Shown here: positions 12,781-60,613 of the stretch, piece by piece
Layout: each line of letters starts with the position of its first letter
How positions within the stretch are numbered: position 1 is the first letter of the stretch
Origin: Tricharina praecox
Taxonomy: Eukaryota
Reading direction: 5' to 3'
Length of the DNA stretch: 64,000 bases
Assembly (NCBI RefSeq): GCF_024521635.1
Contig: NW_026250433.1
Coordinates: forward strand, 186,001 to 250,000
Notes under the pieces: model-generated
The model's input: the letters and a program-made list of their open reading frames with translations, nothing else
Told to the model about the DNA's origin: nothing
Databases searched by the model: none
Made by a program: the position numbers and the translations under genes

Positions 12781-15627
12781 ATGCAGCTCCAGATGCAAAG
12801 TCAACGTTATGATAGACAGCAACAGCAGCAACAACAGCAGCGGTCCGAACGAAGCCCAGAACGAACACCTTCCCTGAACACGGACTACCACTTCGACCTT
12901 GCCACGGAGATTCAAGCACGATATCAGCCTCAACATCAGCAATACCAGCACCAGCACCAGTTCCAGAGTCCGAGCCAGAACCAACACCACCAACAGAGAG
13001 CCAGAGACAGGGACGACATGTCGATGGCGGGAGCGCGCAGGACGTCCATAAACGGAGGCAGCACAAACGGCGGTAACAACAATAAGGACTCGTATCGCGC
13101 GCGAGACGATGGATGCCGGCTTCGTTCCCCCCCTTCGTCACCACGGCTACAGCCGACGACGACCGCGACCCCGAGCGCAAACACAACCCGGACAACCACA
13201 CCGCGGAATGGACGAAATGAACACCGATTGACCCTGCCGATTTCAAGGCGATTGTTACGGAGCGACTGGGTGAACCTGGAGGGACTGGTTCAGTGCGCCT
13301 TGGGATGCCTCGGAAAGGAGGAATGCACAGGCATAAGCGAGCTTGGTACGTTCCATTTTCCTTCACCGCTTCAACTTTTTCATTTCGTCGGCAATTTCCG
13401 CCCGTTTTACTTTACCCGATCACATTACTTGTGAAGTCCGGGATGTACTTAGTCATGCTTTATTTGCGTTGAGGTTGTGGTTCAACTGTCACGATAACCG
13501 ATTGCGTGGACGGGGGAGGAGGAGCGGGGGTGTTGTACTCGGCGGGAGGGGGGGGGGGGGGGGGGGGGGGATTGTGGGTGGGTGCACGTGGACAGTGTGG
13601 GGAAATGTTTTGGGCATTGACTTGCAGCGATCGACGTCCGAAACAAAGTACTTGTGTACTTAACATCCTCCCGTCCTCATCCTCGTCCTCCCTTATCCCC
13701 TTCCCTTCTTCTTTTTCTTCTTCAACTTCAACTTCAGCTATCCGCTGGGGTTGAAGGGCACGGCTGCATCTGAGACCATCCAAGGCGCCCTATAACCGGG
13801 TTTGTCTGAGGAACCAGAGCCAGAGTGTCGGGGTCTCCTTGACCATTACCCCTCCCCAGTCTTGCATTTCCTTTACCTACATCCAACATCCCCTCATGTC
13901 TTTGGTCTCGCATACTGGAATCGGGGCGGTAGAATAATATTCTCATCAATGCGCGGAAAAATGGATCGTCTCTCATGTCGTCATGTTGTCATTCCGGATT
14001 TCTGTCTTTTTCTGCTTGACCTCCGGCTTGAAGGCTGTCAACCGCAGTCGCTTCAGCCTGAGGGAGAGGGAATGTTTACGCATTGCATCTCTTGTGCCAC
14101 TCAGTACATTTCCAAAGATTCATGGCTGACGGTTTCACTTCAGGTCGTGGATCGCACAATTCGTTATACGAAGTTCGGTTTTCCGATGGTACATCATGCG
14201 CCGCTTCGATATCGAATTCGCCACCGCAATTCTTCTCGGCGGACGCGAAGAGGTCGGAAATAGCCACCATGCGATACATTCACTCTTCACCACTATACAA
14301 CATCCCGATACCGCGAATATACGGCTGGGATCTGACATTCGATAATCCTGTTGGCGCGCCATACATTCTTCGGGAGTGCGTCAAAGGAACGAACCTTTCG
14401 ACCGACGGGCGCTTTTACGGATTAAGCCCCGAAAATAGAATGAAGGTCATCAAGCAGCTCGCATTTGTGCAGGCCGAGCTCTCCAAGCCTTCGGAGTTCA
14501 AACAGCTTGGATATATCTATCAGCGGGAAGAGAACGAGAACGAGTTTTACGTCGGAAAGATCGCCGCTTTGCCGTCAGGATGCCCGGAGGAGGATGCGCG
14601 GCAAGAACCATACCTCGGGCCGTACGATTCACTGCCCGAGCTCTGGGAAGCTCGGATAGATAGGGAGACGTTGTCGGCTATCGGAAACTGGTCGCAGTTG
14701 CCATCGGACTCGTCGCTTCCTTCCCACCTCGGGCCTCCGTCGAAGGCGAACCCCCAGGAATTCGGCGAGCTCCTGCAGCTATTGGCGGGATTGACGAACG
14801 TGTTCAATCCCCCGGCGCAATTGTCCACTCTTTGCATTCACCACTCTGATTTCGCGCTCCGCAATGTGCTGTTCGACGAGAAGACCATGAAGATTTCCGG
14901 AGTTATCGATTGGGAGTTCGCTTCAGTGATGCCGCTATGCATCACCGGAAGGTTTCCCAATGATCTGGGTTGGGAAGGAAACGAATTTGCGAAGTCGATG
15001 GGGAAACTAGGAAAAGAAGCCGACGTGTTCAACCACCATTACTACGACTGGACCTCCCTGAGCGGGGTTGCTCCGCCGCCCAGGGCTCGAGGAGATATTC
15101 CGAGTCCGCCTGCATCTCCCGCCCACCCAAACATGCGAGATGAAGATTATCTGACATCTCCGAATGCTTCGGCGAACGGATGCATGGGCCGACTTCCCGA
15201 CTCGGAATACTTCGGTGATGAGGGCGTGCCATCACCGCCGTCGCCTCCTCTGCCCCCACCACCAACCTGCGAAACCTCGCAGCAAGAGGTCGAAACACGC
15301 GCGTCGAATCTGATCCAACTCTACTACTACCGCAAGTACTATGCGTCTCGAGTTGCGTTCCACGATTTCGGCTTGACACGACTGTTCATGGACTCGGTAG
15401 CGTACATCAAGTTCAACGAAATCGTCACGGGAGGCGCCGAGAAGTGGTTCGGAGCGGCCGATTGGATTAAGGAGCTGTTCTTCAGGTTCCAGGCTCTTGA
15501 CCGGAGTGTCAGGGACGAACTTATGGCGGGCAAGGGGGTTGTGCGGGTGCCCGAGCGGTTTGAGTACGAACGAAGGGTTGAGGTAGATTTGGGGGAGTTG
15601 GAGAAGCGTCCGGGATGCCTGCGGTAG
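12781..15627 (+). CDS. APH/choline-kinase-like phosphotransferase family protein, about 682 aa; exons 12781-13345 and 14144-15627
   Basis: Donor GTACGT at 13346, branch GCTGAC and CAG at 14143 join ELG|RGSHNSLYEVRFSDG (Gly-rich loop). Also SEIATMRYI, PIPRIYGWD, VGAPYIL, catalytic HSDFALRNVL and metal-binding VIDWE. Start codon uncertain (12781, 12793 or 13018). Confidence 0.85.
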
Positions 15628-29883: not shown

Positions 29884-31158
<1,275 letters not shown>

Positions 31159-32077
31159 GCGGGCATCGCTTGGCCTTATTGATGTTCTGGTTCTGATTTG
31201 CGTTGTGCGGTGTTGTGAAAAGTGAGAAAAGTGCGCAATTACGATGATGATTTGATGGATGGTGCATAAAGGTTCCGCTATCACAAAACAGGGGAGGGAA
31301 TCATACGCTTTGCTTCTTCACAAATTCTGTACTTTTCTGTTTCTGTGTTTAATGAGATCCCACCTTTGTTTTCTGTGATGTAAATCGGAATGGTAGTCTC
31401 ATTAACTTTCGCCTGACAACCACAGCCACAGCCATAGCCATCGTGGGCATCCAGGCCATCGTGACACAGCCGTAATCAATCATTTCCATCCTTCACCGCA
31501 TCTCTCAGCTGGCGACCTCAGTGGTAGAATCATCCAGCGAATCGTAAAGTGGCATGAGCTTGATTAAAGCAGGAAATTCACGGTATCACTGTACTAGCAG
31601 AGCACCGCATCCTATCCAGCAATCAGGTCAATGGCTGTGGATATGTTACACGCATGCACTCGGACTACATCGCCCATCTCCACGAGTGAGGACCCAGATA
31701 AGTATTTGGTATCAATCTCATCTTTGCACCGCTGCTGCAGCAACACGTGCGTCATTCGGGAGGTCAACCGACTAGTGTATTGTATTTCCGTATATGGCTT
31801 GGCGCGCTCAAACCCTAGGGTCGGTAGCGGCGAAGCGCACGCCAGTGAAAAAAGACGCTAGTGCGTGCGGGAGCTCGCGATTCCTGAATGACCTCAATTT
31901 TTTTGCTTCCCTTCCTCTCCTTCTTTTCTTTCTTCCCCATCGCTCCTGTTACTTAGCTTGCTAACCAACACGCCCGATTTTCGACATCGACCTCGAAAGC
32001 AATCTTGACTTCATCTCGAATACAATTTCCCCACTTCCTTCGACCTATCTAGAAGACACTTACAGCTTACTTCACGG

Positions 32078-32311
32078 GTGAGTGCTTCTTGGCTATCTTT
32101 ATCCCAACATTTTTCTTCCTATTCCTAGAGCTCGTCGCGTTCGCAGAACACCTGAGCTACAGCGGCGTCTTCTTAGACGCTGTTGTTTGCGCTGTGTGTC
32201 TGGTTGGTCGGCGGCGAGTTCCGCTCCGCCAACGTGGAGCCGCATCATCTTCCCCATCCTTGTCCACCCATCGGCATCAGCAAGACTGACTTTGATCTTG
32301 ATCGCGTCCAG
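32078..32311 (+). other. Probable 5' UTR intron of the 2035-aa gene
   Basis: GTGAGT donor at 32078, ACTGAC branch near 32285, CAG at 32311, 14 nt before the ATG. Confidence 0.5.
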
Positions 32312-32325
32312 TTAACCTTCACGCA

Positions 32326-35300
32326 ATGGAGCCGTCACGCTTCACACCCTTCGGCAAGAAGACGCCTACGCTCACGCCCGGCATCTCGAACACATCCGTT
32401 GGGAACGAGAACACACCTAACACAAACGACAACATGACGTCGCCTACTACACCTCCTACTTCAAGAATCGCGTCTACTGGCGTCGCGCCAACGACCCCTT
32501 TCACGACGAACACGAACAGCCAGAGGAATCTGAATGGAAGCAGTTCAAAGAAACGGTCGATCAGCCAATTCTTCAGTGACGTACCCAAGACCACCGCATT
32601 CAATTCAAGCGAGATGGCAACACCGAACAGAAGGCCCGGTCCTCCGCCCCGTCGTATCACCAAAGTCGAGAAAACGCCCGGCAGAGTTCGCCCGCAGCCC
32701 CCCAGCCTGAACAAGAGTATGGAATCGAAGGATTCACAAACCGAGCCTGAGGTTCCGGCACGTCGCCCGGTTTTTCCCTTTTCGACCCACCAGAACACGC
32801 TTCGCCAGAACACCTCGTCGAGGTCGTTTCATTACTTCGGGGAGCCGACGCAGATAGTTCCGCCCAGTGAGAGGAAGAACTTGTTTGGACAGAGGCTACC
32901 ACCCCTACCGCCACAAGCACAGTCAGAGCCAGTGCCTCCTACCCCGATGGCTAGTGCATCGTTTCCTACTGGACTCGTGAACCCTCCGAATACCGCGTCT
33001 CAGCTTAGAGATATCAAGAGTTTCTCCGGCGTTAGCGTTGCGCCGTCTACACCTAGCGCGGCCAGGCAATTGCCCCCTCTGTTACCTAAATCTGACTTCG
33101 CTTCTAAGTTGAGGAGCAAGATTGTGACAGCCGGCAAGAAGATACCACGAACGTTTCACAAGATCAACGAGCGTATGGCAGAGCGCGAGGCCACCAGGAA
33201 ACTCGAGATAGCTAAGGCTAAGCAGACGCGTGGAAATCCTCTCGAGAGTGTGGAGAAAGCCCGGACCATGCTGGAAGAAATTAAGGCAGAGAGAGAAGAA
33301 GAGGCTCGCATGGACTACTATCGTGCCAAGCGTTTGAAGGAAGCAGAAGAAGCGGGGGAGGAGACGCGCAACCGGGATCGCTACACGCAGGGCTTAGCGC
33401 CGTCCTCTTTCGTGGAGGAGTCGACTGAGGCAGATGAATCCGATATATCCGAATTTGACACTGGCTCCGAGGACGAGGGGTCTTTGAACGAGCAGCCGGA
33501 GGAAGCGCCGCCGTTTAATTGGGCATCTGCTTCGTACGCCCCAAGCGCCACCCCTGCCAAACAATCGACTTCGTCCAGAGGCCCGAAATCACCTGAAGTC
33601 ATCAACCTTATTAGCGATTCGGAAGATGCTGACGACGAGCCTGCTGAAAAAGCACCCACCATCAAGAAGAAAGTCTCGTTTTCTACGAACTCGGACGAAG
33701 ACGATGATACGACTCAGCGCATGGAGGAGGGTATCTTGCCGCATCGCGACTCGAGTCCAGTGGAGACTTCAGACGACGAAGACGAGGAGCTTGCTGAGAA
33801 AGCACCCACCATCAAGAAGAAAGTCTCGTTTTCTACGAACTCGGACGAAGACGATGATATGACTCAGCGCATGGAAGAGGGTATCTTGCCGCATCGCGAC
33901 TCGAGTCCAATGGAGACTTCGGACGATGACGATGACGAAGAGTCTGCCGAGAAGGCACCCACCAACAAGAAGAAAGTCTCGTTTGCTGAAAACTGGGACC
34001 AAAATGATGATACGACTCTGAGCATGGAGGAGAGTGTGTTTCCGCGTCGCGACTCGAGTCCGGTGGAGCTTTCGGAAGAGGAAGAATCCGACTCGTCCAG
34101 ACTGGAGGACTCGCACATTGACGAACCCGGCTCTTCTAGAGTGGAGCTCTCCTACAATGCAGAATTCGACTCCTCCAGAGTGGATCTCTCCGACAATGCA
34201 GAACTCGACTCGTCGAGAGTGGAGTCGGACGATGACGAATCGAACGTGTCCAGAGACTCTATTCGCAGTGAATCTTTCGACGTTGAGCCAGAATCCTACA
34301 ATCATGCGTCGGGTTGGCCTGGGTACGGTGATGTTTCGGGTTCGCCTGTGTATGATGTTTCGGGTTACAGCGATGACTCGGAAGACAACGAAACTTTACG
34401 GGAGGCGGAGGTATACTTGCCTAGTATGGGATCGGATAGTTCTCTCGCGTTCAATATGACGGAAGACGTTTCGGAAGACTTTTCGCAAGAAGAGGATGAA
34501 GAAGAATCACATTATGATGAAGTCGAATCGTCCAATGAAGAGTCTCACAACGCGGATACAAGACAAATGCTTCCTCGGGAGTTTCTTTCGTATTCGGATG
34601 AGGAGGATCTGGAGGAACCACCTGTCGCATCGTCAACGCCGTTGCGTAAGGCGGTCCTTGAGAAGGAATCTGCCACCGTTGTGGAAGCATCCGTCACCGC
34701 TACAGAGGTAGAACCCGAGGAAGGAGACGCGACAAGGAGATTGGATCAGGACAACTCTGTCGGCCACTTCACTGCCCTGGATCTTTCGCTGTTCGGGCCT
34801 GATGGTACACTCGGTGGTGCCAACCAGAATGAGGAAGATGAAGAGTCTGCCAAGGCGGATACAAGACAAATGCTTCCACGGGAGTTTGTCTCTGATTCGG
34901 ATGAGGAGGGCCACAATCAGGAGAAGAGTCCGCAGCAGACGATGCAAACGGAGACTACGATGGACGCTCAGCCATCCGAACAATTAACTGAGGAAGAGCC
35001 CAAAGAGGCAAATGAAGAAGAGTCCACCAGAATGAATAATGACAACACTGCCGGTCACTTCACCGCCCTGGATCTATCGCTGTTTGGGCCTAATGTCACA
35101 TTCGGTGGTTCCAACCAGGAGGAGAGCGACGAAAAGTTTCATAACGAGAATGACGAAGAGGCTCACGAGGAGGATACAAGACAAATGCTTCCACGGGAGT
35201 TTGTCTCTGATTCGGATGAGGAGGGCCACAATCAGGAGAAGAGTCCGCAGCAGACGATGCAAACGGAGACTACGATGGACGCTCAGCCATCCGAACAATC

Positions 35301-38300
35301 AACTGAGGAAGAGCCCAAAGAGGCAAATGAAGAAGAGTCCACCAGAATGAATAAGGACAACACTGTAAGTCACTCCACTGCCCTAGATATTTTGCTGTTC
35401 GGACCTAATGTCACTGGTGCCAACCAGGATGAGAATGACGAAGAGTTTGAAAACGAGAATGACGAAGAGGCTCACGAGGCGGATACAAGACAAATGCTTC
35501 CACGGGAGTTTGTCTCTGATTCGGATGAGGAGGGCCGCAATCAGGAGAAGAGTCCACAGCAGACGATGCGAATGGAGACTACGATGGACGCTCAGCCATC
35601 TACGCAATTAACTGAGGAACAGCCCAAAGCGGCGGTAGAAGACGAGTCGATGAGAATGAATAAGGACAGCTCTCTCCGTCGCTTCATCGCTTCCGTGGAT
35701 CATAGACTGCTAGGACCCCACGTCACATTCGGTGGTGACAACCCGGAGGATCAAAATGAAGCGTCTCACAAGGCGGATACCAGACAAATGCTTCCTCGTG
35801 AGTTTCTTTCGGATTCGGATGAGGGGGATTTGGAGGAACCACCTGTCGCATCGTCTACTCCGTTGCGTAAGGCGGTCCTTGAGAAGGAATCTGCCACTGT
35901 TGTGGAAGCACCAGTCACCGCTATAGAGGTAGAACTCGAGGAACCTCTTCGATTCGACGAGGTAGAGGAAGGAGACCAGACAAGGAGATTGGTTAAGGAC
36001 AGCTCTCTCGGTCGTTTCATCACTGCCCTGGATAATACGCTATTTGGACCCGATGTCACAACCGGTAGTGCCAACCCGGAGGATCAAGATGAAGATTCTC
36101 ACAAGGCGGATACCAGACAAATGCTTCCTCGGGAGTTTCTTTTGGATGAGGATGAGGATCGCAGTCATAAGAAGAGTACACAGCAGACGATGGAAACGGA
36201 GACTACGGTGGACGCTCAGCCTTTCCATGAAAATACCGATGAAGAGTATAATTCCGAAGATGTTCGCACAGGAAGTTACTACGAGGACTTCGGCGACATC
36301 GGCTCCAATTTGTCTGAAGCCGAACAGAAGAGGGAGCAACAGAGATTGGAGGAAGATTTCGAAAAGGAAACGGCGGCAGAGCGGGTATCCTCTTCGGGGA
36401 CGGAGGAGGTGCCACAGCCGAAACAGACTCCGGTAGATGATGAGGAGCTTGTGGACTTTGAGGGCTCAACCATGATGTCGCTTCCGGGGTACAGGTACCA
36501 GGAGCGGTCGAGAGCGCCAAAGGCCCAGACCAGTATGCCAATGCTGGAGGAGGCGGAAGAAGAAGAAGGGGAGCACGATATGAGGGAGCTTTCTGAGTAT
36601 GGAGACGCAGCGACATACGTGGAATCCAATTCCAGCTCAGAATACGAATATGAGCCCGACTCATTCGGAGAAGCTTCTATCGCGGACGATGAGGTCGACG
36701 AAGCCTCCAAGCAGATGTTAATGGAGATGTGCCTGGCGAAGGAGGCTGCTCCCGGCGAACCTCAGGGTCCCACTGCTCCGGAAGCCGATGGAGTGATCGA
36801 AGAGACCGTCAATGCTGTGGACTCTGTGACTACTGTCGAGACCGAGACTTGCGAGATTACCGAGCGCGTCGACGAAGATCCTACTGCTCCGGAAGCCGAT
36901 GGAGTGATCGAAGAGACCGTCAATGCTGTGGACTCTGTGACTACTGTCGAGACCGAGACTTGCGAGATTACCGAGCGCGTCGACGAAGATCCTACTGCTC
37001 CGGAAGCCAATGGAGTGATCGAAGAGACCGTCAATGCTGTGGACTCTGTGGCTACTGTCGAGACCGAGACTTGCGAGATTACCGAGCGCGTCGACGAAGA
37101 TCCTACTGCTCCGGAAGCCAATGGAGTGATCGAAGAGACCGTCAATGCTGTGGACTCTGTGACTACTGTCGAGAACGAGACTTGCGAGATTACCGAGCGC
37201 GTCGACGAAGATCCTACTGCTCCGGAAGCCAATGGAGTGATCGAAGAGACCGTCAATGCTGTGGACTCTGTGACTACTGTCGAGACCGAGACTTGCGAGA
37301 TTACCGAGCGCGTCGACGAAGAAGAGCGCGTCCACGAAGAGGAGCCCGTTAACAAAGAGGAGCCCGTGAACGAAGAGGAGACGGCCAAGGAAGAGGAGTG
37401 CATCAACGAAGAGCATGGCTCCAATGAAGTTGAAACCAACGAGCCTGTCAAGGAGGCAACCGAGGTGGACACCGAGGAGAACGTCAAGGTTGACACTTCC
37501 GAGATTGTCAGCAAGGGGCTCGCCACCCCGGAAACGTCCACCGCCGAGGCGGTGGACACTGACATCTCGGTGAAGGAGGAGCCTTCCGAGGCCACAGGGG
37601 TCGCTAGCGCCCCTGTCTATGAGGGCCGCGTTCTACGGAATCGGTCCATCACTCCCATAACTGGGCCCCCCGTGGCGAAAAAGCGGGGGGCGAAGCGCAA
37701 TGTGCCCCCAGTTGAGGGGGATCATGTGGAGGAAGGGGCCCCTTCCCCGCCAAAGAAGGCCCGCGTTGGCCGCCCTCGCAAGATGGCACCGGCGAAGGTC
37801 GAGCCACCGACCGAGGCCCGCAATCTGCGGCCTCGGTCAACGACCCCGCTTGTGCCAGCGGCGGTTCCGGTGGCTGCGCCTGCCAAGAGGGTGGCCAAGC
37901 GCAAGGCGGCACTAGTGGCTGATGGGCCCGCCGTCGAGCCCCGCAATCTGCGGTCTCGCTCGACGACGCCGTTTGTCCCCGCTGGTGTTCCAGCGGCTGC
38001 GCCTGCCAAGAGGGCAGGCAAGCGCAAGGCTGCCGCGATGGACGGTGAGCAGCCCGTGGCCGAGCCCCGCAATCTGCGGTCTCGGTCCACGACACCGTTC
38101 GTCGCGGCTGGTGTTGCGGTTGCCGCCCCGGCCAAGACGCCCACCAAGCGCAAGGCTCCGGCCAAGCGTACAACCAAGGCCTCCTCGGTGGCGGAAGCCG
38201 AGGAGGCCGCGGTTGAGGGGGGTGAGGAGGAGGAGAAGCCCCTCCCGATGGCCAAGGGGCGGCCGCGCAAGGCTCCGGCCAAGCGCGCGCTCAAGGCCTC

Positions 38301-38433
38301 CTCGGTGACGGAAGCCGAGGAGGCCGCGGTCTCGGGAGGGGAGGAGGAGGAGAGGACGACTGCGACGCCTGCAAAGGCTCGCAAGGGTAAGGCAGCTACG
38401 GCTGCCGCCCGCCGTTCTACTCGCTCGAAGTAG
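32326..38433 (+). CDS. 2035-aa predicted-disordered repeat protein with an acidic body and a basic tail; candidate chromatin-associated PP1 scaffold
   Basis: 6.1-kb uninterrupted ORF with in-frame internal repeats and a T-rich 3' UTR; KKKVSF x3, SIM-like VINLISDSED, GRPRK x2. Confidence 0.85.
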   Translation: MEPSRFTPFGKKTPTLTPGISNTSVGNENTPNTNDNMTSPTTPPTSRIASTGVAPTTPFTTNTNSQRNLNGSSSKKRSISQFFSDVPKTTAFNSSEMATPNRRPGPPPRRITKVEKTPGRVRPQPPSLNKSMESKDSQTEPEVPARRPVFPFSTHQNTLRQNTSSRSFHYFGEPTQIVPPSERKNLFGQRLPPLPPQAQSEPVPPTPMASASFPTGLVNPPNTASQLRDIKSFSGVSVAPSTPSAARQLPPLLPKSDFASKLRSKIVTAGKKIPRTFHKINERMAEREATRKLEIAKAKQTRGNPLESVEKARTMLEEIKAEREEEARMDYYRAKRLKEAEEAGEETRNRDRYTQGLAPSSFVEESTEADESDISEFDTGSEDEGSLNEQPEEAPPFNWASASYAPSATPAKQSTSSRGPKSPEVINLISDSEDADDEPAEKAPTIKKKVSFSTNSDEDDDTTQRMEEGILPHRDSSPVETSDDEDEELAEKAPTIKKKVSFSTNSDEDDDMTQRMEEGILPHRDSSPMETSDDDDDEESAEKAPTNKKKVSFAENWDQNDDTTLSMEESVFPRRDSSPVELSEEEESDSSRLEDSHIDEPGSSRVELSYNAEFDSSRVDLSDNAELDSSRVESDDDESNVSRDSIRSESFDVEPESYNHASGWPGYGDVSGSPVYDVSGYSDDSEDNETLREAEVYLPSMGSDSSLAFNMTEDVSEDFSQEEDEEESHYDEVESSNEESHNADTRQMLPREFLSYSDEEDLEEPPVASSTPLRKAVLEKESATVVEASVTATEVEPEEGDATRRLDQDNSVGHFTALDLSLFGPDGTLGGANQNEEDEESAKADTRQMLPREFVSDSDEEGHNQEKSPQQTMQTETTMDAQPSEQLTEEEPKEANEEESTRMNNDNTAGHFTALDLSLFGPNVTFGGSNQEESDEKFHNENDEEAHEEDTRQMLPREFVSDSDEEGHNQEKSPQQTMQTETTMDAQPSEQSTEEEPKEANEEESTRMNKDNTVSHSTALDILLFGPNVTGANQDENDEEFENENDEEAHEADTRQMLPREFVSDSDEEGRNQEKSPQQTMRMETTMDAQPSTQLTEEQPKAAVEDESMRMNKDSSLRRFIASVDHRLLGPHVTFGGDNPEDQNEASHKADTRQMLPREFLSDSDEGDLEEPPVASSTPLRKAVLEKESATVVEAPVTAIEVELEEPLRFDEVEEGDQTRRLVKDSSLGRFITALDNTLFGPDVTTGSANPEDQDEDSHKADTRQMLPREFLLDEDEDRSHKKSTQQTMETETTVDAQPFHENTDEEYNSEDVRTGSYYEDFGDIGSNLSEAEQKREQQRLEEDFEKETAAERVSSSGTEEVPQPKQTPVDDEELVDFEGSTMMSLPGYRYQERSRAPKAQTSMPMLEEAEEEEGEHDMRELSEYGDAATYVESNSSSEYEYEPDSFGEASIADDEVDEASKQMLMEMCLAKEAAPGEPQGPTAPEADGVIEETVNAVDSVTTVETETCEITERVDEDPTAPEADGVIEETVNAVDSVTTVETETCEITERVDEDPTAPEANGVIEETVNAVDSVATVETETCEITERVDEDPTAPEANGVIEETVNAVDSVTTVENETCEITERVDEDPTAPEANGVIEETVNAVDSVTTVETETCEITERVDEEERVHEEEPVNKEEPVNEEETAKEEECINEEHGSNEVETNEPVKEATEVDTEENVKVDTSEIVSKGLATPETSTAEAVDTDISVKEEPSEATGVASAPVYEGRVLRNRSITPITGPPVAKKRGAKRNVPPVEGDHVEEGAPSPPKKARVGRPRKMAPAKVEPPTEARNLRPRSTTPLVPAAVPVAAPAKRVAKRKAALVADGPAVEPRNLRSRSTTPFVPAGVPAAAPAKRAGKRKAAAMDGEQPVAEPRNLRSRSTTPFVAAGVAVAAPAKTPTKRKAPAKRTTKASSVAEAEEAAVEGGEEEEKPLPMAKGRPRKAPAKRALKASSVTEAEEAAVSGGEEEERTTATPAKARKGKAATAAARRSTRSK
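36769..37323 (+). repeat. Coding minisatellite, 111 bp (37 aa) x5, near-identical
   Basis: PTAPEA[DN]GVIEETVNAVDSVTTVETETCEITERVDED; units start at 36769 and 36880 and continue at the same period. Confidence 0.95.
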
Positions 38434-39053
38434 ACCCCCGGGGAGGGGGGGGAAGATGTGGGTGGTGTTTTTGGTTTTGTTTTGTTTTTGGTTTTTGTTT
38501 GTTTTTGTGTTTTTGTCAGTTTTTTTTTGTCTGTAACTAAAATTACGACTTTTTTTTCTGATTCGACTGTATTGTGTGTTTATGGGGGGCTCCTGGTGGC
38601 GTTTTGTGTTTTTTCCATCTTTACTCATTTGTAGTCATAGGGGGGGGTGCATCGGGAAGTGCGCATTTTGGTATCATTGTTATCTACAGTACTCCACGCT
38701 TGGGTATGTACTTTGTTTATTCGTAATATGAATGGGAATAGGTGGGGATCGTTGGGAGGAAGGGAAATCATAGATAGATAGGTAGACGGTTGCTAGTTAT
38801 GTTTTATTGCACATAAACTACTTGCTTACCTACTGGATATCGACGTGCTCGCTGGCTGTGGGTGAAATTGCCTGAGAACTTCTATTGAGTATCGACCGCG
38901 AGTCTGCGGTAACTACTACAAAGGTCAGAACCAGACCCACCTGCCCGGCCGAGCTGAGTTTCTGCCCAGCACTCGGCCCTACACATCAACCGCACCCATC
39001 ATAGGTAAATACCGCACCGACGCCGGCCCGCCGAAGCATCAGTCCGAGACCCT

Positions 39054-40087: not shown

Positions 40088-42408
40088 TCATAGTCCTAAC
40101 CCACGGACAATGACCCACACACCGACGGGCACCACCACATTATCATTAACGCCCGTCGCCGTAGCCTCGAGCATACTCCCCCACGCGCCCGCAAACAGCA
40201 GTTTCGCCCAGACCATTACCCCCCAGTCCCCCATGTCAGTGCCGACGATCCACAGTCTCGCCACGACCAGCCCGGAAACCACCGCTACCGTGAATGCCAG
40301 GCTGCCCTCCACGCTCTTCCCGCCTTTCCAGCCCCACTTGTGGCGGCCGAACCGGCGGCCGATGAGGGATGCCGCCGCGTCGCCGAGGCCAACGCACGCA
40401 ACGCCGGTGGAAAACGTGAGGGATGCGGGCTCTTCCCAGTCCCAGCCGCTCTGGCAGCGTGAGGCGAGGGTCAGCCACCAGCCCATGCCGGCGCCGACGA
40501 GGAGGAACACATGCGAGATGACCATGGGGCCCTTGAGGTCGCGGCCGTCAACGTATGGTTGCAGGAACCGGGCGATGTATTGACTAGCGGGGGGAAGTTG
40601 GCCGGCACGGATTAGGTCAACGAGTAGGAACAGGGCTACGGCAATGCTGAGGCAGAGGTGGGTGAACGGTGGGTCGAGCAGCCCAGGGATCAGAAACATG
40701 GGCACCACCATGCCGTGGAATATCTTGCGGCGGGTATCAACCTCCAGCTTGTGTGCAAATGTCGTCACCACGGTGAGTCCGATGGTGAGGATGACAGCCC
40801 AGAAGCCGACGATGCCTAGTCGCAAATTTGCCGCTGCCGTGGACCCAGCCGTTACGCAATATCCAGATCCGGGACTGAACCGGTCCACGAGTCGCTGATA
40901 CCAGCTCTGACCGCAGAACACGTAGCCAGGAGCCCATACAAATGGGTCCATACCGTCAAGGGCATGATCCCTGATGTAAGGCCTCAACGCAAAGAAAACA
41001 CTTCCCAGCACAATGCTGTATACACATGCAGTATATCCCAGCCGGCGCACCCTGGCTTGTTCCTTGGTGAGCGTAGCAAAATATGATCCCTTTCTGGGCT
41101 TGGCCTGCCGCCTGATGGGCGTGGTGATCTCCGCCTCGCTGTCGCTTGCTTGAGTGTACGTAGACCAAATGCCTTTCTCCAGTCCTGCCAACCTGCGCAG
41201 CCGACTGGCCCCAATGATGGCGTATCCGGCACGCCGAAAGCGGTGGATGGGAACACGGGCGAGCATAACATTCCATGAGATGACGTCTTCGCATAGAAGA
41301 AAAACAGCCACACCACCGCCCCATACCAGAGCCCTAAGGATGACAGCTTGCGGAGATGACGCATGGAAGAGAAGGTTGATCAGCGCCGACGAGAGCAGAC
41401 GCAGCTCGCTCGAAGTCAAGGATGGATGTAGGATGCTCGTCAGAGCAGAAGTTAAAGTTATATTAATGGGTGTGATGAGGGAGAGCGTGTCGTTGATTGG
41501 TATTTGGCCCTGATCCCACTGGGACGGCAGTAGTGGTAACAGCGACAAAAGCCACTGCAGGTTCCATGAAGACGCCAGTATAGGTGGTAGGTTGGAGATC
41601 GATAGGACCAGGTTAACCAGCAGGAACGGATTCGAAATGCCTGCTCCTACCGGTGTGAGGGACAGCGCGATGAGGACAGGAAATAGCGATGGATATAGCA
41701 ACGGCGAAGGATCAAGTGAGCGCGGAAGCTGCACGGTGCCGTCACGTAGCAGCACCCGGAAGGGATACGCGGCGACCAAGCCTAGATATGGAATCAACCA
41801 ACATATGACCTCTACGTAGCCATCAGCACCTAGAACTTCGAGCAAATCGACGCACACCATAAGGAACGGGGGTGGGCCGGCCGACCTTTCTTTCGGAGCA
41901 GCATCTCCCGCCAAGCTCTATTTTCCTGTCCCAACAGAGCGACAACAACCAGCACCAGCGACAGCGCAACCTCGATAGCCCTTCTGATGAAGGCGATACC
42001 CGCTCTCTTCTTTGGCCTTTCCGCTTTCGACGGAGCCCCATTGCGTTGTCGTCCCCTCCCCCTTAACCCGCTGCCGTCACGGTTCCAAACCTCATCCTCG
42101 GAGGAGATGCGCCTTAGCGCTGGGGGCGCCGGGAGTCTTCGCGTCAATTCATCGTCGGCCTCCGTGCCGGACTCGGAATAGCTAGATTTCTGGGGGGTTC
42201 CAGGCTTCGAGGACTCGGGAGACGACAATAGCGCTGGAGTCGGGGGGTAGGAGTGGTGTTGAAGCGCAGGTCTTTTGGACTCCTGTCGACGGCGGTAGGG
42301 GTGCGGCGAACGCGACGGTTGACGGTTGGCGACAGGAGAGGTGGAGCGGGAGATGTCCAGCGTCGTCGATGTCGGAACCGAAAGGGTCTCAGCCTCCAGC
42401 ACCGTCAT
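40088..42408 (-). CDS. SEC59: Dolichol kinase, 748 aa; intron 41812-41885
   Basis: Multiple hydrophobic segments; EVDTRRKIFH, DGRDLKGPMVISHVFLLVG, GLGDAAASLIGRRFGRHKW...KSVEGS, NDN; intron GTCGGC...GCTGAT...TAG restores the frame. Confidence 0.93.
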
Positions 42409-43859
42409 ACTTGGGGTGCGCGGAGGGGAGAGGGGGCCGTAGGTATCGCAGATGGTATTGTATATTTAGGCAGCTGAGACAAACAGCAGCTAATAGGAGG
42501 AGCTCTGTCTACGCGGCCACGCTTCGACTTTACTCTGGTCGCGAAGTAAAGTACAAAGCCGGTTGGTCGTTGTGGGGGGAAACAGAAAGGCAAACGTGTG
42601 GAGGTGTGTGGACGGACAAACTGGCTTCTGGTGACTTGGATGATTGCAGTGGGGAAACATCAGATTTCAAGATCAGCGTCTTTAGATCTTCAGCTGCAGA
42701 CGCCGAACAGTGGGCGTGGCATGGCATGGTACGGTGTGTAGGGGGATTATTTTTTGTCGCAACGGTGTCAGCACAGACGAACGACTGACGCGGAGCCTGG
42801 AGGAAATCAGAGGAAATCTAATTCTGGATCGGCACCGAGCATGTGGGTCTTGGAGACTTGGAGGCTTGGAAGTTGGACTCCTGGGAGTCGGGACAGTGGG
42901 AGGCTTTGTGGCGCGAGAGAGGGGGTTGCGCCACTGGCGCCATAGAGTATGATAGGCGGCAGGGAAGCGATAGGGGGCAGTCGTTGAGGCTGGGGTGGCG
43001 TGTGCAATGGCTGGTGATAGGACATGTCGGAGTGACTTGTGGAGTGTGGCGTGTGGAGTGTGGAGTGTGGCGCGCAGCTGTTGATGGCTATGCGATGGCG
43101 AGAAACACCAAGTCTTTAAAACCTGACAGATAACATTGAGATGGCGGTGTGTATGTCACCACTTGTAACTGAAGATCAACAGCATGCACTAATACTCTAT
43201 TACCCACCTACTTAGTTAGATACTCGGACCGGTGGATATTCAGGTTAATGGGTTAGGAGGGGAATCCTGAATGGCTCGCCAGCTTTTGGTTGGGTCGACA
43301 ACGCTGAGCGCAGATCCAGAAGCACATATGATGTATGTACTATGTACTAGCCATAGGTACCAGTCCTCTGGCTCTACTTACTCTCTTCATCTATAGACTC
43401 TAGCTACATACACCACTCCCGGCCCATCGATCCCGCATGCCATCTCCTAGTTCACTGCCCAGCGGCGGATTCTCTTCGGCACGGCCTACCAACTAATCGG
43501 ATCAGGTCAGTTCAGCTAACTTGACCGCCACACCATCCACGGCGTTCTACGTGGCGACTGCGAAGCCGAGCTTCCGATGCCTCGATAGCTTCGACACCAG
43601 CTTTGAGCGAACATGCCATTGCGTCCCGCTGTACTGTAGATCCCCTCTCTCGCGGTCATCTGTAGTGAGGTAGGGATCGCGGCGCCCGTCGGCGTGACGG
43701 TTGGTTACCTATACCTAAGAGTACATGGGCAGTCGAACGAGCCGTTGCGATGAAATGCCCAGGTGTCGGCTGCAATTTTCGGAATATTCCCACTCATCCG
43801 AACGGCTCCCCTCATCTCATCTCCGACCGCCAGACATTGCATTATTATCACCGCCGTTC

Positions 43860-44879
43860 ATGTCATTGTCCGTTTCCAGCATGCAGCGTGGGAACTCGTC
43901 AGATGCCGTAGAGCGGGGGAAACCCCTCAACCAACGGCGAAAGCCACCCTTCGAGAAGCGATTCTCGCTCCCGGAGCCGCACACCTCGTCGCCGACGTCC
44001 GCTGCGAAACCGGCCTCGTTCACCGATGATTCGATCCCGGGGCTGCCCATCGTCCCGCCGACGACCGTCGAGGGACACGCCGAGAAGGAGCTCTCGGTGC
44101 GTAGACTCGACGATGTGCACCTGCACCTGTGGTGGGCGGGACGACCAGCCAACATCCGGCCCTTGCATTCGCAGCGGATGATGAAGCGCGACATCGTTCC
44201 GTCGGAGAACATCGGTCTGCACCTGGTGTGGTTCGATACGACGTACTACGTCAAGCCGCTGCCGGAGTGGCTGCTCAACTGGGACTACTACGACGAGGTG
44301 CTGTGTGCAGACGAGCAGCTGTTCCGCGCCGCCAACGGCCTCCTCAGCACCTACACGAAGCTGGTGCAGCACCCGAGCGATTTCCGGATCGCGCGTGAGC
44401 TGGGACTATTTCCCGATAGCTTGGAGCGATGGGAGGACTGGAGCCGAATCGCGGCGTCCGTCCAGAGAGGCAACGGCATCGCGGACGGCAACGTGAGCGA
44501 GCGCTACCGCTACGGTGAGCTCCGTCTCCGACGCCTAAATCACATCTACCGCATCTTCCGACGAGAAAACTACCACTCGGTGTACGCCCAGTACGACCAG
44601 TTCTTCTCCAAGAACTTTGCCTGGCTCCTGCTGCTGGTGGTATATCTCTCTGTCATACTCTCGGCCATGCAGGTCGTCCTCAGCACCGCAATAGAGAACG
44701 TCCCGTTCGAGAATGTTTCCTATTGGGTCTCGATTGCGGCGCTGGTGTTCATCGGCGTCGTCATAGGACTACAAGTGTTCCTGTTCGTGGGGCTGTTCCT
44801 GTACCATCTGGTGTGTACGATTCTCAACCTGGAGAGGGAAAGGGTGCCGTGGGCGGGTCATACGAAGGGGGGGTCATAG
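43860..44879 (+). CDS. DUF6601-like fungal protein with two C-terminal TM helices; start uncertain (43725, 43860 or 43881)
   Basis: ELSVRRLDDVHLHLWWAGRP, RPLHSQ, LHLVW..YVKPLP, RYRYGELRLRRLN, ILSAMQV, recalled as motifs of this family. Confidence 0.75.
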   Translation: MSLSVSSMQRGNSSDAVERGKPLNQRRKPPFEKRFSLPEPHTSSPTSAAKPASFTDDSIPGLPIVPPTTVEGHAEKELSVRRLDDVHLHLWWAGRPANIRPLHSQRMMKRDIVPSENIGLHLVWFDTTYYVKPLPEWLLNWDYYDEVLCADEQLFRAANGLLSTYTKLVQHPSDFRIARELGLFPDSLERWEDWSRIAASVQRGNGIADGNVSERYRYGELRLRRLNHIYRIFRRENYHSVYAQYDQFFSKNFAWLLLLVVYLSVILSAMQVVLSTAIENVPFENVSYWVSIAALVFIGVVIGLQVFLFVGLFLYHLVCTILNLERERVPWAGHTKGGS

Positions 44880-54889: not shown

Positions 54890-57576
54890 CTACTTCTCGC
54901 CCTCCTCTTCCAGCAGCAATTTGAAGCTGAAAGGCTCAAACGCCAGACCGTCTCCGATAAAGAATTTGCTCTGTTATAACCAGTCAGTTCGGGTTCAAGA
55001 TATAGACGGAGAGAAGAATAAAAGGGAGCTTACCATTGCCTCAACCCAATGCAGACGGAGCGAATGCAACATGGCACTGGTACCCTCAATGATAACGAGA
55101 ATAACGACGGTACAGCAGAACCACAGACCAAACAGGAAAACAGTCATGATAACACCGAGGGTGCCGGTAACTCCAAAGGCCAGTCCCAGCGTCATCGACC
55201 ACAGCACCGACGACAACTGCGCGTGAGCGAGCGACAAAGCCCACAGTCGCAGGTACGACGCGGTGTGCGAGACACAGTTGAGACAGAACTCGATGGTGTG
55301 GATGATCTGGTGGATCATTTCCTCGGCAAAGTCGAATTCGTGCTCTTCACCCATCTCCTCGGCGATGAGAGCGTGCGCGGAGCCATCGGTTTCAACGCTG
55401 TCACGGGCTCCCGAGGGCTCGTCGTCGTCGTCGTCGAGGGCGCTGACGCGGGTGACGGTACCACCGAGACCCTGGTAACCGGCGGCGTGATGCTTGTTGT
55501 GTTCGTAGCGCATCCAGAGAGGCTTCAACAGCAGCATCCAGGGAATGCAAATCACGGCGATAAGAGTGAGGAATAGCTGGATGGGCTTCTGGCCGGGGTA
55601 GAGTTCGTCCTCAATGGTACCGGGGGAGAGGAACATGTAAATGAGCATGTTGAGCAACGACGGGGCGGGCTTTCCAATCTCATTCCAGTCAACGGTCCAC
55701 TTGTAGAGGATGCACATGACGAGGTAGCCAAAGATCGACTGTAGGAAGAGCATGCCGGGAATGAAGTTGCCGAGAGTATCGATACGAGACTTGTAGAAGC
55801 GATGGTTGTACTGAGAGAGGCACAGCGAATAGGTCATATGAGCCCATCCGAGGCAGACAGACAGCTTCATCTTGTAACTGTTGGTGAACAGAAGCGCGTT
55901 GTCGGCTGCGTGCCATGCCCAGTCAAGCCCGAAAGGGTAGACGTAGCCAGGGATCTTGTGAGCTTCGAGGGCGTCTCCCGCGTTAAAATGCTCAGGCCAT
56001 TCCCAAGCGCTCGAAAACAGAGTGAGAGGTTTCGAGAAGATATCGTTGTAGATCAGACCGGTGTACATGGCGAAGATACCCATGAGCAACATGATATACC
56101 GACCGAAGAACGCCATGTCGAAGATCTCAAAGATCTTCTTGCCGATGAGTTTCTTCTCGTAGTAGATCATAACACACGCAGTCAAGAACATGATGAAGCC
56201 GTGCCCAAGATCTCCGAACATGACGGCGAACAGGAACGGGAAAGTGATGATTGTTGCCAGACCAGGGTTAACCTCGCGGTATTTGGCGACACCATAGGCG
56301 TTGACGATAGTTTGAAATCCCTCCGTAAACTTGTTGGTCTTAATGTAGGTCGGGGGAGTCTTGGTCGTCTTCAGCTCGTTGATGATGCTGGGAACCTGTA
56401 GGCGAGCCTGCTCGGTGACGTCCCGCAAGGTGGCCTGGATCAACGGCAGCGAGTTTGTCGGCAGCCATCCCTCGGCGACTAGGTACTTCCTTGCAGCATC
56501 GTAGTTGAATAGATTGAGCGTCTGGTAAACAGCCTTTTCCTTCTTGATGATGACCATCCAGCTAGCCAAACTCTGCGCAATCATTCTAAGCTCGCCATGA
56601 AGGGTGTTCTCGGTGTTCTGCAGGACACTCTGGAGGTCGTTGATGCGGTTATTGACTTCGTGAAGCTGGTCCCTCCTGAGGTTGGTGTCCTCGTCGACCG
56701 AGTACAGATCCGCACCGAGCGACTCGGAAATCTTCCTGATCTTTGCCAGAATCTCCTTTCCATGCGCAAAGATAACGAACACATTCTTGTCGACATTCTC
56801 TCCAGTAGCCGGATCCGTAATCGGTTCATCAATCTCCGACTGGTTCATGTAAAGATTACCCCTCAAGGTCCTCCACAAGATCCTCTCGAACGTCGCGATC
56901 CTGTCGCGGGGAATAACACCCGCAACGAACCCAATATTCATCGTTTGGAAGCTCATCTCGCCAGCATTCCCGCTGTTCGCCTGCGAAACGGAGTGCTCCA
57001 CATCCTCCAGTAGTGGCGCCTCGTCTGAGGAGTTCCTCCTTATATCATCGGCCTGATGATGAGCGCGATCGAAGAACCCTCCCGCCTCCCTCAGGACCCA
57101 ACGGTACTCGATGAGTTCTACCCAGCGTTTCTGCAGCGTCTCGTGGGACTGGTTGAGCTGGGAGATACGACCCTCTAGGGCCTGCGCGCGTTCCGAAAGG
57201 TTATCGATCTCAGCGGCGGAGGGGGCAGCGGTAAGGCTCGCGTTATTCTCCACAGGCCGGACCATAACTCCATTCTTCTCCATCTGCGCGCCGAAAAAAC
57301 GGAGCTGTCGCTCGACGTTGTCGAGGCGTCGGATCTCCTTCGTGAAGGTTCGCTGGAAGGCGGAGGTATCTGCGTTCAACTACACGCTGTCAGACCAACG
57401 TTGCCGTCACCACTCCCTCAAAAAGCTACACAGAGGGGGAAAACACGCACGTCGCGAAATTGCATCATCCCGACTTCTCCCAACGCGCTGACAGTTTCGC
57501 GTCCAATTTCCGTCGCCACGTACAGCTGTACGAGCGACATCTCCGAAGAGCGGAACATGGTGTCTGGCTGTCCCAT
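54890..57576 (-). CDS. VPH1: V-type H+-ATPase V0 subunit a, 850 aa; introns 57380-57450 and 54971-55033
   Basis: [51 protein letters not shown] (essential Arg), [16 protein letters not shown]. Confidence 0.97.
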
Positions 57577-58016: not shown

Positions 58017-60613
58017 CTAATACACCGACGACATATCCGACACTGCCCTACCAATGATACTCACAAACCTTCCCACACGGTCGTTCGTATCTTGTCTCGC
58101 CGTCTCTGCTGCCATCAAGATCTTCTTGATACCGACATTGATGCGCTTGGTGCGAGTATGCTCCTCAATCAGTTGCAATACTATCTGCTGTTCTTGCGGT
58201 GAGAAGAGCTCTAGGCTCCCAAGAACTGACTGAAGTTCTTCATGGTTTGCAACATTCGGCACGGCAATTTCGGCGTCAAAGTTGTTGAGCAAGTCGAGCT
58301 GGCTGAGAACGCTGCGTTCAGTGGATGTAGCCAGGATCAGGAGGCGTCGTCCCTTAGGGGGAGGTTTCCGAAGCAAGACGACCAGGGTTTGCAGGACCGC
58401 GTTCGAGAAGCGTGGGCCGATTGGCACCCAATCGATGATGCGCTCGATCTGGTCCACGACCACAATGTTGAGTGAACTCTTGTATGCGTCCGAGAACACC
58501 TTCGTCAGGTGCGAGATCTTATTCATTTCGTTGTAGCCTACCATGGCCTCCGGGCTAACTATCTTGATGAACGGGAAGTCGCTGGCCATGGCTATCGTAG
58601 CTGCCAGGGCAGTCTTTCCAGACCCTGGTGGGCCGTGCATGAGGACAGAGACCAGAGGCGTCTTTTCTGACTTCCGTACCTGTTCGACGAAGAGATGGCC
58701 CTCGGAGAGGATGCTCTCAATGTTGCGTGAGAACTTGATGACACCACCAGTGGTACACGCTTCGAACTCCTCTTCTGAGACACCAAAAGCCGGTCGCACT
58801 TCTTCAAGAGCCAACATGAAATCGGCACGGTTCACCTTCATGTTCTTGATATCCTTAGTGTCGATCTTTTCGCCAAACTTTGCGTGGCGGTTGAAAGCGA
58901 AACTAGTTGCACTCTTGACAAGACCGCCGATTTCTGCTCCGGAGAAATTTTTGGTCACTGAAGCCAGCTCGAAGATGTCGACGTCCTGGTCGAGAACGTT
59001 GTTGATCTTGAGTTCCTTGGTGCGGATACCGAGAATTTGTCGGCGACCATTCTCGTCTGGCAGTGCGATCTCGATATGGACTTCCAGACGACCAGGACGG
59101 AGAAGCGCCTCATCGATCATGTCTTTTCTGTTGGTCATACCGATGATCAGAACATTGTTGAGTTGGTCTACACCGTCCATCTACGTTTGACATTAGCCCA
59201 TAATGCTTGACCCCCCAACCAAGAAATACATACCTTCGACAAGAGCTGATTGACGACAGTATCTCCAACACCAGTACCATCGTTTTTGCTACCTCTTTGC
59301 TTGCAGATGGCATCCAGCTCGTCGAAGATGATGATATGAAGCCCACTCTCATCTCCCTTCTCCTTGTACTCCTTCTCTGCGTCTGCAAAAAGCTTTCGAA
59401 TGTTTTCTTCCGACTGACCGACGAACTTGTTCAGAATTTCAGGACCATTCACAATCTTCGGCTCACGAGAGTTCAGGGCCTTTCCGATTTGTCTCGCGAT
59501 CAAGGTTTTTCCAGTACCCGGAGGTCCGAAGAGTAGTATTCCCTTGACATGTTGAATCCCCATCTTCTCGATCAACCCCGGAGGGAAAATCCTAGAAGCG
59601 AAAGCTCTTCGGAAAATCATAGCAAACTCATCGTCCAAGCCACCGATTCCCATGCTCTCAAAGTTGAAATCTTGCTTGATGATATTGGTAGAGATGCGGG
59701 TACTTGAGGGTCGCACCCTGAGGTTCTGTCCGGATTTAGTGTGGAAGTTGATCAGAGTCTCATCGAATATCAAGCCTCGAGGCGCGAACTCCGTTGGCCG
59801 CTTGCGCGCCAACGAGTACTGCTGCACCGATGTAACCATAGCGATCAAGTCAAAGCCTTTGTACTTGATCGGAATCGCCAGACCCGAGCCAATAACTGTG
59901 TCCATGTATGCCTGTCCGGCCTGTAAGCGTCCATTCCCACGCCACACACACCGTGGCACAAACCTGTCTAAAAAACTCCTCCATTTCGTCCTGATCTAGC
60001 TCTAGCTGCGGTTGATCCGCATATTTCGCCGCCACGGCGGGACTATGCCATGCGATCTCGATATTGGCGCTGATGACATACTCATCCTTCTGATGCGGAT
60101 CGTACGGCTCCACGGATATCTGGTAGGGATGCTCATAGTTCCTGAGCGGCTGCCCAGTCGCTATCATCTTCTTCGCGGCCTCTTCATACGGTTGCACTCC
60201 CAGGTAATCCCTCAGGAAGCCTCCGAGCCCCAGAAACGGCCGCTCCGGCTGAGGAGGAAACGATTGCCCCGCCTGAGCGAACGGCCCCTTGTGCTGGTAG
60301 ATGGCTTGGGACAGTGGCTCAACGTTAATGACGTACTTTCCGTCGACGAGAGCGTAGCGCGCAGTGAAATCGCGGTCCTCGGTGATGGCTCTAAGGTACG
60401 ACAACACATCAGCTGAGCTCCTTCTATCTCTCCTTGACGCAACGCCGGAAGTGCGTACTTATTCCTACGAACAATCTCGGTGTGCGCATTCTTAACCACC
60501 GTGAAGAGCCGCTGTGTAGGTTTCTCAGAGGAATACGGCGTAAACTGCTGCCCGCTTTGTTGCGGGGGCTGTGATGCTGGATTGCCACTGCCGGGTCGGA
60601 GCCATCCTGCCAT
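58017..60613 (-). CDS. SEC18: Vesicle-fusing AAA ATPase NSF, about 807 aa; introns 60391-60458, 59912-59963, 59181-59233
   Basis: MGIGGLDDEFAMIFRRAFASR, GPPGTGKT, IIIFDELDAICKQRGS, second Walker A GPPGSGKT, PIGPRFSN. Confidence 0.96.

Follow-up and report, generated by a model that had tools for sequence, protein, structure and literature searches.

In Xenopus ELYS, an RRK stretch occupies residues 2404–2406 of 2408 with an AT-hook ~70 residues upstream, and both the AT-hook and the arginine stretch in the last five residues are described as necessary for nucleosome binding, the stretch being placed on the acidic patch (PMC6499780; here and below, statements from the literature refer to the excerpts of the cited papers on which we drew). 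The nucleosome acidic patch is also bound by the segments RRSARLSA of HMGN, RRSSRLTS of Dsup and RRSARIAT of yeast Dot5, where arginines 1, 2 and 5 of Dot5 are required for nucleosome binding and three arginines are essential in both Dot5 and Dsup (PMC12487698, PMC13347269); Dot5 is the sole fungal case reported so far in the excerpt of PMC13347269. Around the anchor arginine, over a distance of ~5 residues, binders of this surface are enriched in Arg and Ser (PMC10606924). Ki-67 has a C-terminal Leu/Arg-rich chromatin-binding region and extends from chromosomes in a brush-like manner (PMC8354752, PMC5005033). Here we analysed a 64,000-nt stretch of contig NW_026250433.1 of the Pezizomycete Tricharina praecox (positions 186,001–250,000 of the forward strand, hereafter the window), in which a single uninterrupted open reading frame (ORF) of 2035 codons runs from 32326 to 38433 on the plus strand. 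The reading that we favour, to which we assign a probability of about 0.5, is that its product is a lineage-restricted, disordered nuclear protein whose basic tail would tether chromatin at several points, the acidic repeat body of ~1400 residues projecting as a scaffold or brush with docking motifs.

The charge of the predicted product is strongly polarised, with a net value of +24 over amino acids (aa) 1–300, −293 over aa 301–1750 (408 D/E vs 115 K/R) and +28 over aa 1751–2035. Tandem Repeats Finder detected five coding tandem arrays (150 bp × 2.9, 39 bp × 3.6, 315 bp × 2.6, 111 bp × 5.0 and 126 bp × 2.8), the 315-bp array belonging to a set of six ~100-aa units and the 126-bp array sitting in the tail. 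These results bear out the initial annotation, which had described a giant charge-polarised repeat ORF at this position, and each of the elements it listed, namely a basic N-terminus rich in serine/threonine-proline (S/T-P), a motif resembling a SUMO-interaction motif (SIM), three RVxF motifs, acidic repeats and a tail with AT-hook and RxLR[SNP]RS motifs, was found in the sequence. The evidence for chromatin tethering comes from the tail, which contains the following features.

37576..38430, plus strand: basic Ala/Pro/Lys/Arg-rich tail, aa 1751–2035, net +28
37627..37659, plus strand: tail motif copy 1, RVLRNRSITPI
37762..37782, plus strand: AT-hook-type core RVGRPRK, with GRPRK at aa 1815; G66, R67, P68, R69 and K70 invariant in alignment A2
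37819..37851, plus strand: tail motif copy 2, RNLRPRSTTPL
37942..37974, plus strand: tail motif copy 3, RNLRSRSTTPF
38068..38100, plus strand: tail motif copy 4, RNLRSRSTTPF
38254..38271, plus strand: AT-hook-type core KGRPRK, aa 1977–1982, with GRPRK at aa 1978
38410..38430, plus strand: extreme C-terminus RRSTRSK, aa 2029–2035; R280, R281, S282, R284 and K286 invariant in alignment A2

Four R-x-L-R-x-R-S motifs begin at aa 1768, 1832, 1873 and 1915, compared to a mean of 0.002 R.LR.RS matches in 2000 shuffles of the protein. Across five proteins of the family, 22 copies of a 13-residue motif, E-x-R-x-L-R-x-R-S-x-T-P-[FL], were collected. Its three basic positions are occupied by Arg in 20, 21 and 21 of the 22 copies and by Lys in none, and this exclusive use of arginine argues for specific arginine contacts, since plain charge would not need it. 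The remaining positions are similarly constrained: Leu and Thr are present in all 22 copies, Ser and the final F/L in 21, Pro in 20, and Glu at −3 in 19. An AT-hook is defined by a G-R-P core with basic flanks, and GRPRK-type cores number two to six per family protein; the AT_hook model was not among the Pfam matches at E ≤ 10. The RRS[TS]R segment stands at or near the C-terminus in seven of the eight family sequences that reach it, and the residues after it are S-K or A-K, followed by the stop. By sequence comparison, the tail motifs are the best-conserved and most repeated parts of a fast-evolving protein.

This arrangement resembles that of ELYS/MEL-28 in that both are very long proteins with a disordered C-terminus combining an AT-hook with a terminal Arg-rich stretch, as ELYS is described in the excerpted account. 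The likeness holds at the level of motifs only, where KGRPRK lies 51 residues before RRSTRSK and both are conserved in the aligned sequences. The T. praecox protein shows no sequence homology to ELYS and lacks both its beta-propeller and its helical domain (no Pfam match, and no folded N-terminal domain in the AlphaFold2 model), its body is strongly acidic, and it carries four extra Arg/Ser tail motifs unreported for ELYS. The family RRS[TS]R segment keeps R1, R2, S3 and R5 of the HMGN/Dsup/Dot5 motif, matching four of the eight positions of the HMGN 8-mer as quoted in the excerpts, and is located at the extreme C-terminus; with Dsup the protein also shares a highly charged disordered carrier and restriction to one lineage. 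It resembles Ki-67 and RepoMan as a giant disordered protein with single-exon tandem repeats, an RVxF-type sequence and a proposed C-terminal anchor (PMC8354752, PMC5005033). Unlike Ki-67, the T. praecox protein has no FHA domain, Ki-67 repeats or KiR-SLiM (a short motif shared by Ki-67 and RepoMan), its RVxF motif is unconserved and its brush would be anionic (−293); L-R pairs do occur in the four tail motifs, without homology to the Ki-67 LR domain. Ki-67 is described in vertebrates only in the excerpt of the review (PMC8354752).

Membership in the Ki-67, RepoMan and ELYS families was rejected after testing for their defining domains, none of which was found; the initial annotation had described the protein as analogous rather than homologous to these three. 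Shugoshin, CENP-C, INCENP, Nopp140/Srp40, FG-nucleoporins and the Cip/Kip CDI family were likewise rejected, having no Pfam support; the domains that we take to define them are lacking in the T. praecox protein. In our analysis the protein appears most like ELYS and HMGN/Dsup/Dot5 in its anchor logic, and like Ki-67 only in overall design.

If the tail does serve as a chromatin anchor, the GRPRK AT-hooks would contact the DNA minor groove, and the four copies of the 13-residue motif, together with the terminal RRS[TS]R, would place arginines in the acidic patch of H2A-H2B in the manner of HMGN, Dsup, Dot5 and ELYS. The invariant Ser and the Thr-Pro of each tail motif would be likely phosphorylation switches that loosen binding. 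The acidic block would act mainly through bulk charge and length, both of which vary widely between relatives; the block keeps its composition without conservation of sequence or length, spanning 421 to 1369 aa with a net charge of −71 to −281 in four relatives. The conserved SIM would recruit SUMOylated partners, and repeated LFGP...MLP modules in the acidic body would recruit others. We infer the nuclear location, the nucleosome and DNA binding, the phospho-regulation and the brush effect from this analysis.

Several observations weigh against chromatin tethering as we propose it. A PDB sequence search with the tail returned no match at E ≤ 10, and an ESM Atlas search with the tail gave nothing usable. 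Classical nuclear localisation signal (NLS) patterns are sparse, with two K[KR]x[KR] matches. The family core is unlike the quoted HMGN, Dsup and Dot5 segments in having no hydrophobic L/I after the anchor arginine. The peptide of Kaposi's sarcoma-associated herpesvirus LANA, which binds the H2A-H2B acidic patch via an anchor arginine and contacts it with M6, R7, R9, R12 and T14 (PMC10606924), has an Arg/Ser/Leu/Thr-rich composition resembling the tail motif, a likeness of composition only; we rejected it as a match, the arginine spacing being 2 then 3 in LANA vs 3 then 2 here. The same source cautions that similar motifs can bind differently (PMC10606924). With nine constrained positions, the 13-residue motif exceeds what known acidic-patch binders need and could instead be recognised by a kinase, by an import receptor or by some other reader. 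Finally, a short divergence time could partly explain the strong conservation across close relatives.

The tightness of the 13-residue motif would be accounted for if the protein were a nuclear acidic chaperone or sink, in which the acidic repeats bind histones or other basic proteins and the tail motifs are import signals or phospho-regulated docking sites rather than nucleosome anchors. R-x3-P-[FL], for example, could be a PY-NLS-like signal, and R-x-x-T-P a site for a proline-directed kinase. A net charge of −293 over 1450 residues, 16 S[DE]x[DE] CK2-type sites and conserved hydrophobic motifs in an acidic context would all suit such a function. However, it would be unusual for an import signal to be repeated four to six times, the AT-hooks and the HMGN-like terminus favour direct contact with chromatin, and Pfam revealed no similarity to known chaperone families, so we consider the chaperone explanation unlikely.

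The protein, including the body that would form the brush under chromatin tethering, is predicted to be mostly disordered. The features bearing on it are as follows.

32326..33225, plus strand: basic S/T/P-rich N-terminal region, aa 1–300; AlphaFold2 predicted local distance difference test (pLDDT) score mostly <50
33091..33369, plus strand: predicted long helices, aa 256–348; AlphaFold2 on alignment A1 places them at 256–271, 273–302 and 305–348, block pLDDT 64–93
36768..37322, plus strand: 37-aa tandem repeat × 5.0, 98% DNA identity, a recent expansion

Residues 1–300 include 70 S/T and 44 P. AlphaFold2 modelled aa 1–445 on alignment A1 with a mean pLDDT of 50 (314 of 445 residues <50), the helices at aa 256–348 being the only confident elements of this N-terminal model, and aa 1280–2035 as a single sequence with a mean pLDDT of 43 (591 of 756 residues <50) and a helix near aa 1331–1352; models built from one or three sequences are weak tests of disorder. 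In a charge-hydropathy plot every block fell on the disordered side of the boundary, and neither a membrane segment nor a signal peptide was detected (maximum 19-residue hydropathy 0.8). No Pfam family matched the whole protein at E ≤ 1, and four pieces of the protein together with three relatives, searched at E ≤ 10, gave none at the curated cut-off. The earlier statement that no folded domain is recognisable is thus essentially right and needs a small qualification for the helices at aa 256–348 and for the low-confidence hairpins over the 37-aa repeats, which AlphaFold2 models as stacked beta hairpins at pLDDT ~50–73. The relative P0003 has a different yet similarly patterned V/E/T-rich repeat region.

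The family is small. When 1.84 billion representative proteins were searched with a HMMER profile built from the N-terminus, nine matched at E ≤ 0.001, all belonging to this family, and the only name among them was that of the window's own NCBI 'hypothetical protein'. A word-indexed search found three proteins among 8000 scored candidates. Tail-profile searches of proteins of 155–751 and 752–2145 aa, with 8000 candidates scored in each, returned family members only, which weakly suggests that the tail module is absent from other architectures. In addition, a metagenome scan revealed five loci with relatives. At two of these, L004 and L005, an Aminotran_4 (BCAT) gene and then ALAD (HEM2) lie upstream of the relative, the neighbours and their order matching those in the window, indicating that these relatives are positional orthologues. 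As far as the protein searches alone go, the family appears to be confined to a few close relatives within a small group of cup fungi. No paper in the library searched mentioned the locus tag or any of three motif strings.

The N-termini of the relatives are 46–67% identical (alignment A1), and the BLASTP alignment with P0003 was limited to the first 400 residues (50% identity) and the tail, leaving the acidic body unalignable except for islands. Two relatives are rearranged: in P0005 (locus L002, 780 aa) the N-terminal region is duplicated, the acidic block is missing and the tail motifs are degraded (GCPRK, RNLRPRF), and in P0017 (514 aa) an unrelated N-terminus is fused to a decayed tail; each may be a paralogue in decay or a chimera of the assembly. 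Such decay, the mere nine profile matches in 1.84 billion representatives, the recent 98%-identical repeats and the threefold variation in acidic block length would fit a fast-evolving orphan of little specific function, produced by repeat expansion and low-complexity drift, with coincidental motif matches. That a 6.1-kb frame is kept open, that islands of invariant residues persist amid unalignable sequence, that 22 motif copies are held at nine positions and that the position beside ALAD is conserved all speak against drift, and make this explanation improbable.

The conserved islands outside the tail lie in the N-terminal region and in the acidic body, as listed here.

32869..32895, plus strand: ERKNLFGQR motif; R183, N185, L186, F187 and G188 invariant in alignment A1
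33517..33555, plus strand: invariant NWASASYAPSATP island; W399 to P406 invariant in alignment A1
33598..33639, plus strand: SUMO-interaction-type motif VINLISDSEDADDE, aa 425–438; hhXh core, then a Ser/acidic run
34549..36432, plus strand: six ~100-aa acidic units, each with DTRQMLPREF followed by a SDSDEE-type run, five of the six with a FTALDxSLFGP-type motif
36703..36747, plus strand: ASKQMLMEMCLAKEA island, present in P0003 and twice in P0004; AlphaFold2 short helix, local residues 180–187

The conserved N-terminal islands in alignment A1 are [RK]-N-L-F-G, ASASFPTG, the helical segment, FVEESTE.DESEF, NWASASYAP and the SIM. The last reads VINL followed by ISDSEDADDE and is kept in P0003 (VVDL), P0004 (IIDV) and P0008 (VVDL), having been lost in P0006 and P0005. 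In the SIM consensus, acidic residues or a phosphorylatable Ser flank an aliphatic core of the form hhXh or hXhh (PMC8616421); the T. praecox motif matches this consensus and is, judging by its sequence, a candidate SUMO-binding site. The conserved unit of the acidic body is bipartite, consisting of a [FY]TALDxSLFGP-type motif and, ~25 residues on, D[TA][RK]xMLPxEF, followed by an acidic Ser run. Five of these bipartite modules are present in T. praecox (one of them is removed by an intron), L004/P0015 has four and P0003 one, and P0006 carries one full LFGP...MLP module and two with a degenerate second half.

The [RK]-N-L-F-G and LFGP motifs raise the question of cyclins, since Cip/Kip inhibitors contain an LFG-type cyclin-binding motif. 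On this explanation [RK]-N-L-F-G and the LFGP repeats would dock cyclins, and the protein would be a regulator or multisite substrate of cyclin-dependent kinases, or a cyclin sink. KNLF (aa 184–187), invariant in the relatives, is the one place in the 2035 residues that fits the common cyclin RxL consensus, [RK]xLx{0,1}[FL]; no fit to the strict consensus was found (both as defined in PMC12356897), and <15% of even strict RxL matches bind cyclins (PMC12356897). AlphaFold2 shows a local rise in confidence at aa 181–190, and the 31 S/T-P sites would suit multisite phosphorylation. The LFGP repeats have no basic residue at −2, however, and Pfam CDI was undetected. The N-terminal PPSERKNLFGQR (32869–32895) pairs weakly with the tail segment PP..R.NLR.RS (37813–37851; BLAST E 0.51), which hints that the NLFG motif may instead be a diverged copy of the tail-type motif. 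We therefore regard a link to cyclins as highly improbable.

The remaining motifs of the body are those that had suggested a chromatin-anchored acidic scaffold for protein phosphatase 1 (PP1), in which KKVSF would dock the PP1 catalytic subunit and target it to chromatin at mitotic exit, as in Ki-67/RepoMan.

33630..34076, plus strand: 50-aa tandem repeat × 2.9, carrying three KKVSF (RVxF-type) motifs
33667–33681, plus strand: KKVSF copy, aa 448
33817–33831, plus strand: KKVSF copy, aa 498
33970–33984, plus strand: KKVSF copy, aa 549

All three KKVSF copies are preceded by basic residues and followed by an acidic run, and the protein has a chromatin-type tail; Ki-67 has RVSF as its RVxF core, and the Ser in it is an Aurora B switch (PMC5005033). 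The three KKVSF copies arose from a single motif through one tandem duplication. In 2000 protein shuffles the mean number of RVxF matches was 0.47, compared to the three observed, and at least one copy appeared in 38% of shuffles. Because the copies derive from one duplication, and because 38% of shuffles contain a match, the RVxF motif counts as a single event that does not go beyond chance. The pattern [RK][VI]x[FW] was found in none of five distinct relatives covering the region (P0003, the P0004 cluster, P0005, P0006 and P0008); in the segment homologous to KKVSF, P0003 has TESF and P0008 has DVSF, with the basic residue missing. In Ki-67 and RepoMan the RVxF motif is followed by the KiR-SLiM, FDxxLP(P/A) (PMC5005033), and every Ki-67 orthologue retains RVxF (PMC8354752), a pattern from which this family departs. 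Neither a FD..LP[PA] match nor a SILK motif was found in the T. praecox protein. With RVxF in 0/5 relatives and the KiR-SLiM absent, PP1 docking does not appear to be a feature of the family and may at best be a recent, species-specific gain in T. praecox. A PP1 scaffold is therefore distinctly unlikely, and of the proposal in the initial annotation the design of tail and acidic body is supported and PP1 docking as a function of the family is not. Its suggestion that conservation of the motifs in relatives be used as a test gave a divided result, with the SIM and the tail motifs conserved and RVxF not.

The gene is real, as shown by its single ORF, by two GT..AG introns bridged by contigs and by its annotation at NCBI as a hypothetical protein. 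The frame stays open across 6.1 kb, and the product is 99% identical to T. praecox hypothetical protein BZA05DRAFT_421913. The transcript model comprises the following features.

32077..32310, plus strand: 5′-leader intron, 234 nt, GT..AG; contigs of runs X1 and X2 join 32076 to 32311
32326..38433, plus strand: coding region, 2035 codons unspliced, 2014 aa spliced
35365..35427, plus strand: in-frame intron, 63 nt, GTAAGT..CAG; contigs of X1 and X2 join 35364 to 35428

The splice joints were obtained from contigs of two runs from two studies, whose library type is unrecorded and was guessed to be RNA. Removal of the 63-nt intron deletes 21 residues to yield a 2014-aa product. The intron encodes VSHSTALDILLFGPNVTGANQ, a degenerate third LFGP copy inside the tandem repeat, and the annotated NCBI model P0002 (2054 aa) is without the same 21 residues. 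If retained in some transcripts, this intron would toggle one copy of the LFGP module. The C-terminus of P0002 differs from that of the ORF, its last ~16 residues (window 38383–38433 and downstream) being replaced by an unrelated 35-residue end. This difference is probably due to a mis-called 3′ intron, because one contig is unbroken over 37293–38787, spanning the stop codon, and because the relatives that reach the C-terminus finish in RRSTRAK, in the manner of the plain ORF.

Among the neighbouring genes, the HEM2 label given earlier to 30241–31158 was confirmed, Pfam identifying ALAD (E 7e-114). The SEC59 label for 40088–41917 on the minus strand, a hydrophobic ORF of 609 aa, remained unconfirmed, with no Pfam family at E ≤ 0.001. 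A Pfam scan of the 43 other ORFs in the window detected no histone, PP1 or SUMO gene. Pfam assigned a V-ATPase 116-kDa subunit and an NSF-type double-AAA ATPase within 54998–57379 and 58020–59995, both on the minus strand, the ATPase being split over two ORFs, presumably with an intron, and an APH-type phosphotransferase and a DUF6601 protein at 14062–15624 and 43719–44876, both on the plus strand.

A more far-reaching version of chromatin tethering, which we think rather unlikely, is that a small Pezizomycete clade independently evolved a chromatin-coating protein, in which four to six copies of the Arg-anchor motif, the AT-hooks and the HMGN-like terminus would together form a multivalent nucleosome anchor holding a polyanionic brush of ~1400 residues. 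T. praecox is a post-fire fungus. In that case the Ki-67 surfactant, or genome shielding of the Dsup type, would have its first acidic counterpart in this protein. Should the tail bind nucleosomes, the 13-residue motif would be a new, repeatable ligand of the acidic patch or of chromatin, and a chromatin-anchored polyanion near −290 would be a means to learn whether the sign of the charge matters for surfactant or brush effects; for Ki-67, the review describes a brush with partial rescue by positively charged histones (PMC8354752). If the tail does not bind, the locus still shows how tandem repeats and short motifs have built a giant orphan in one fungal family.

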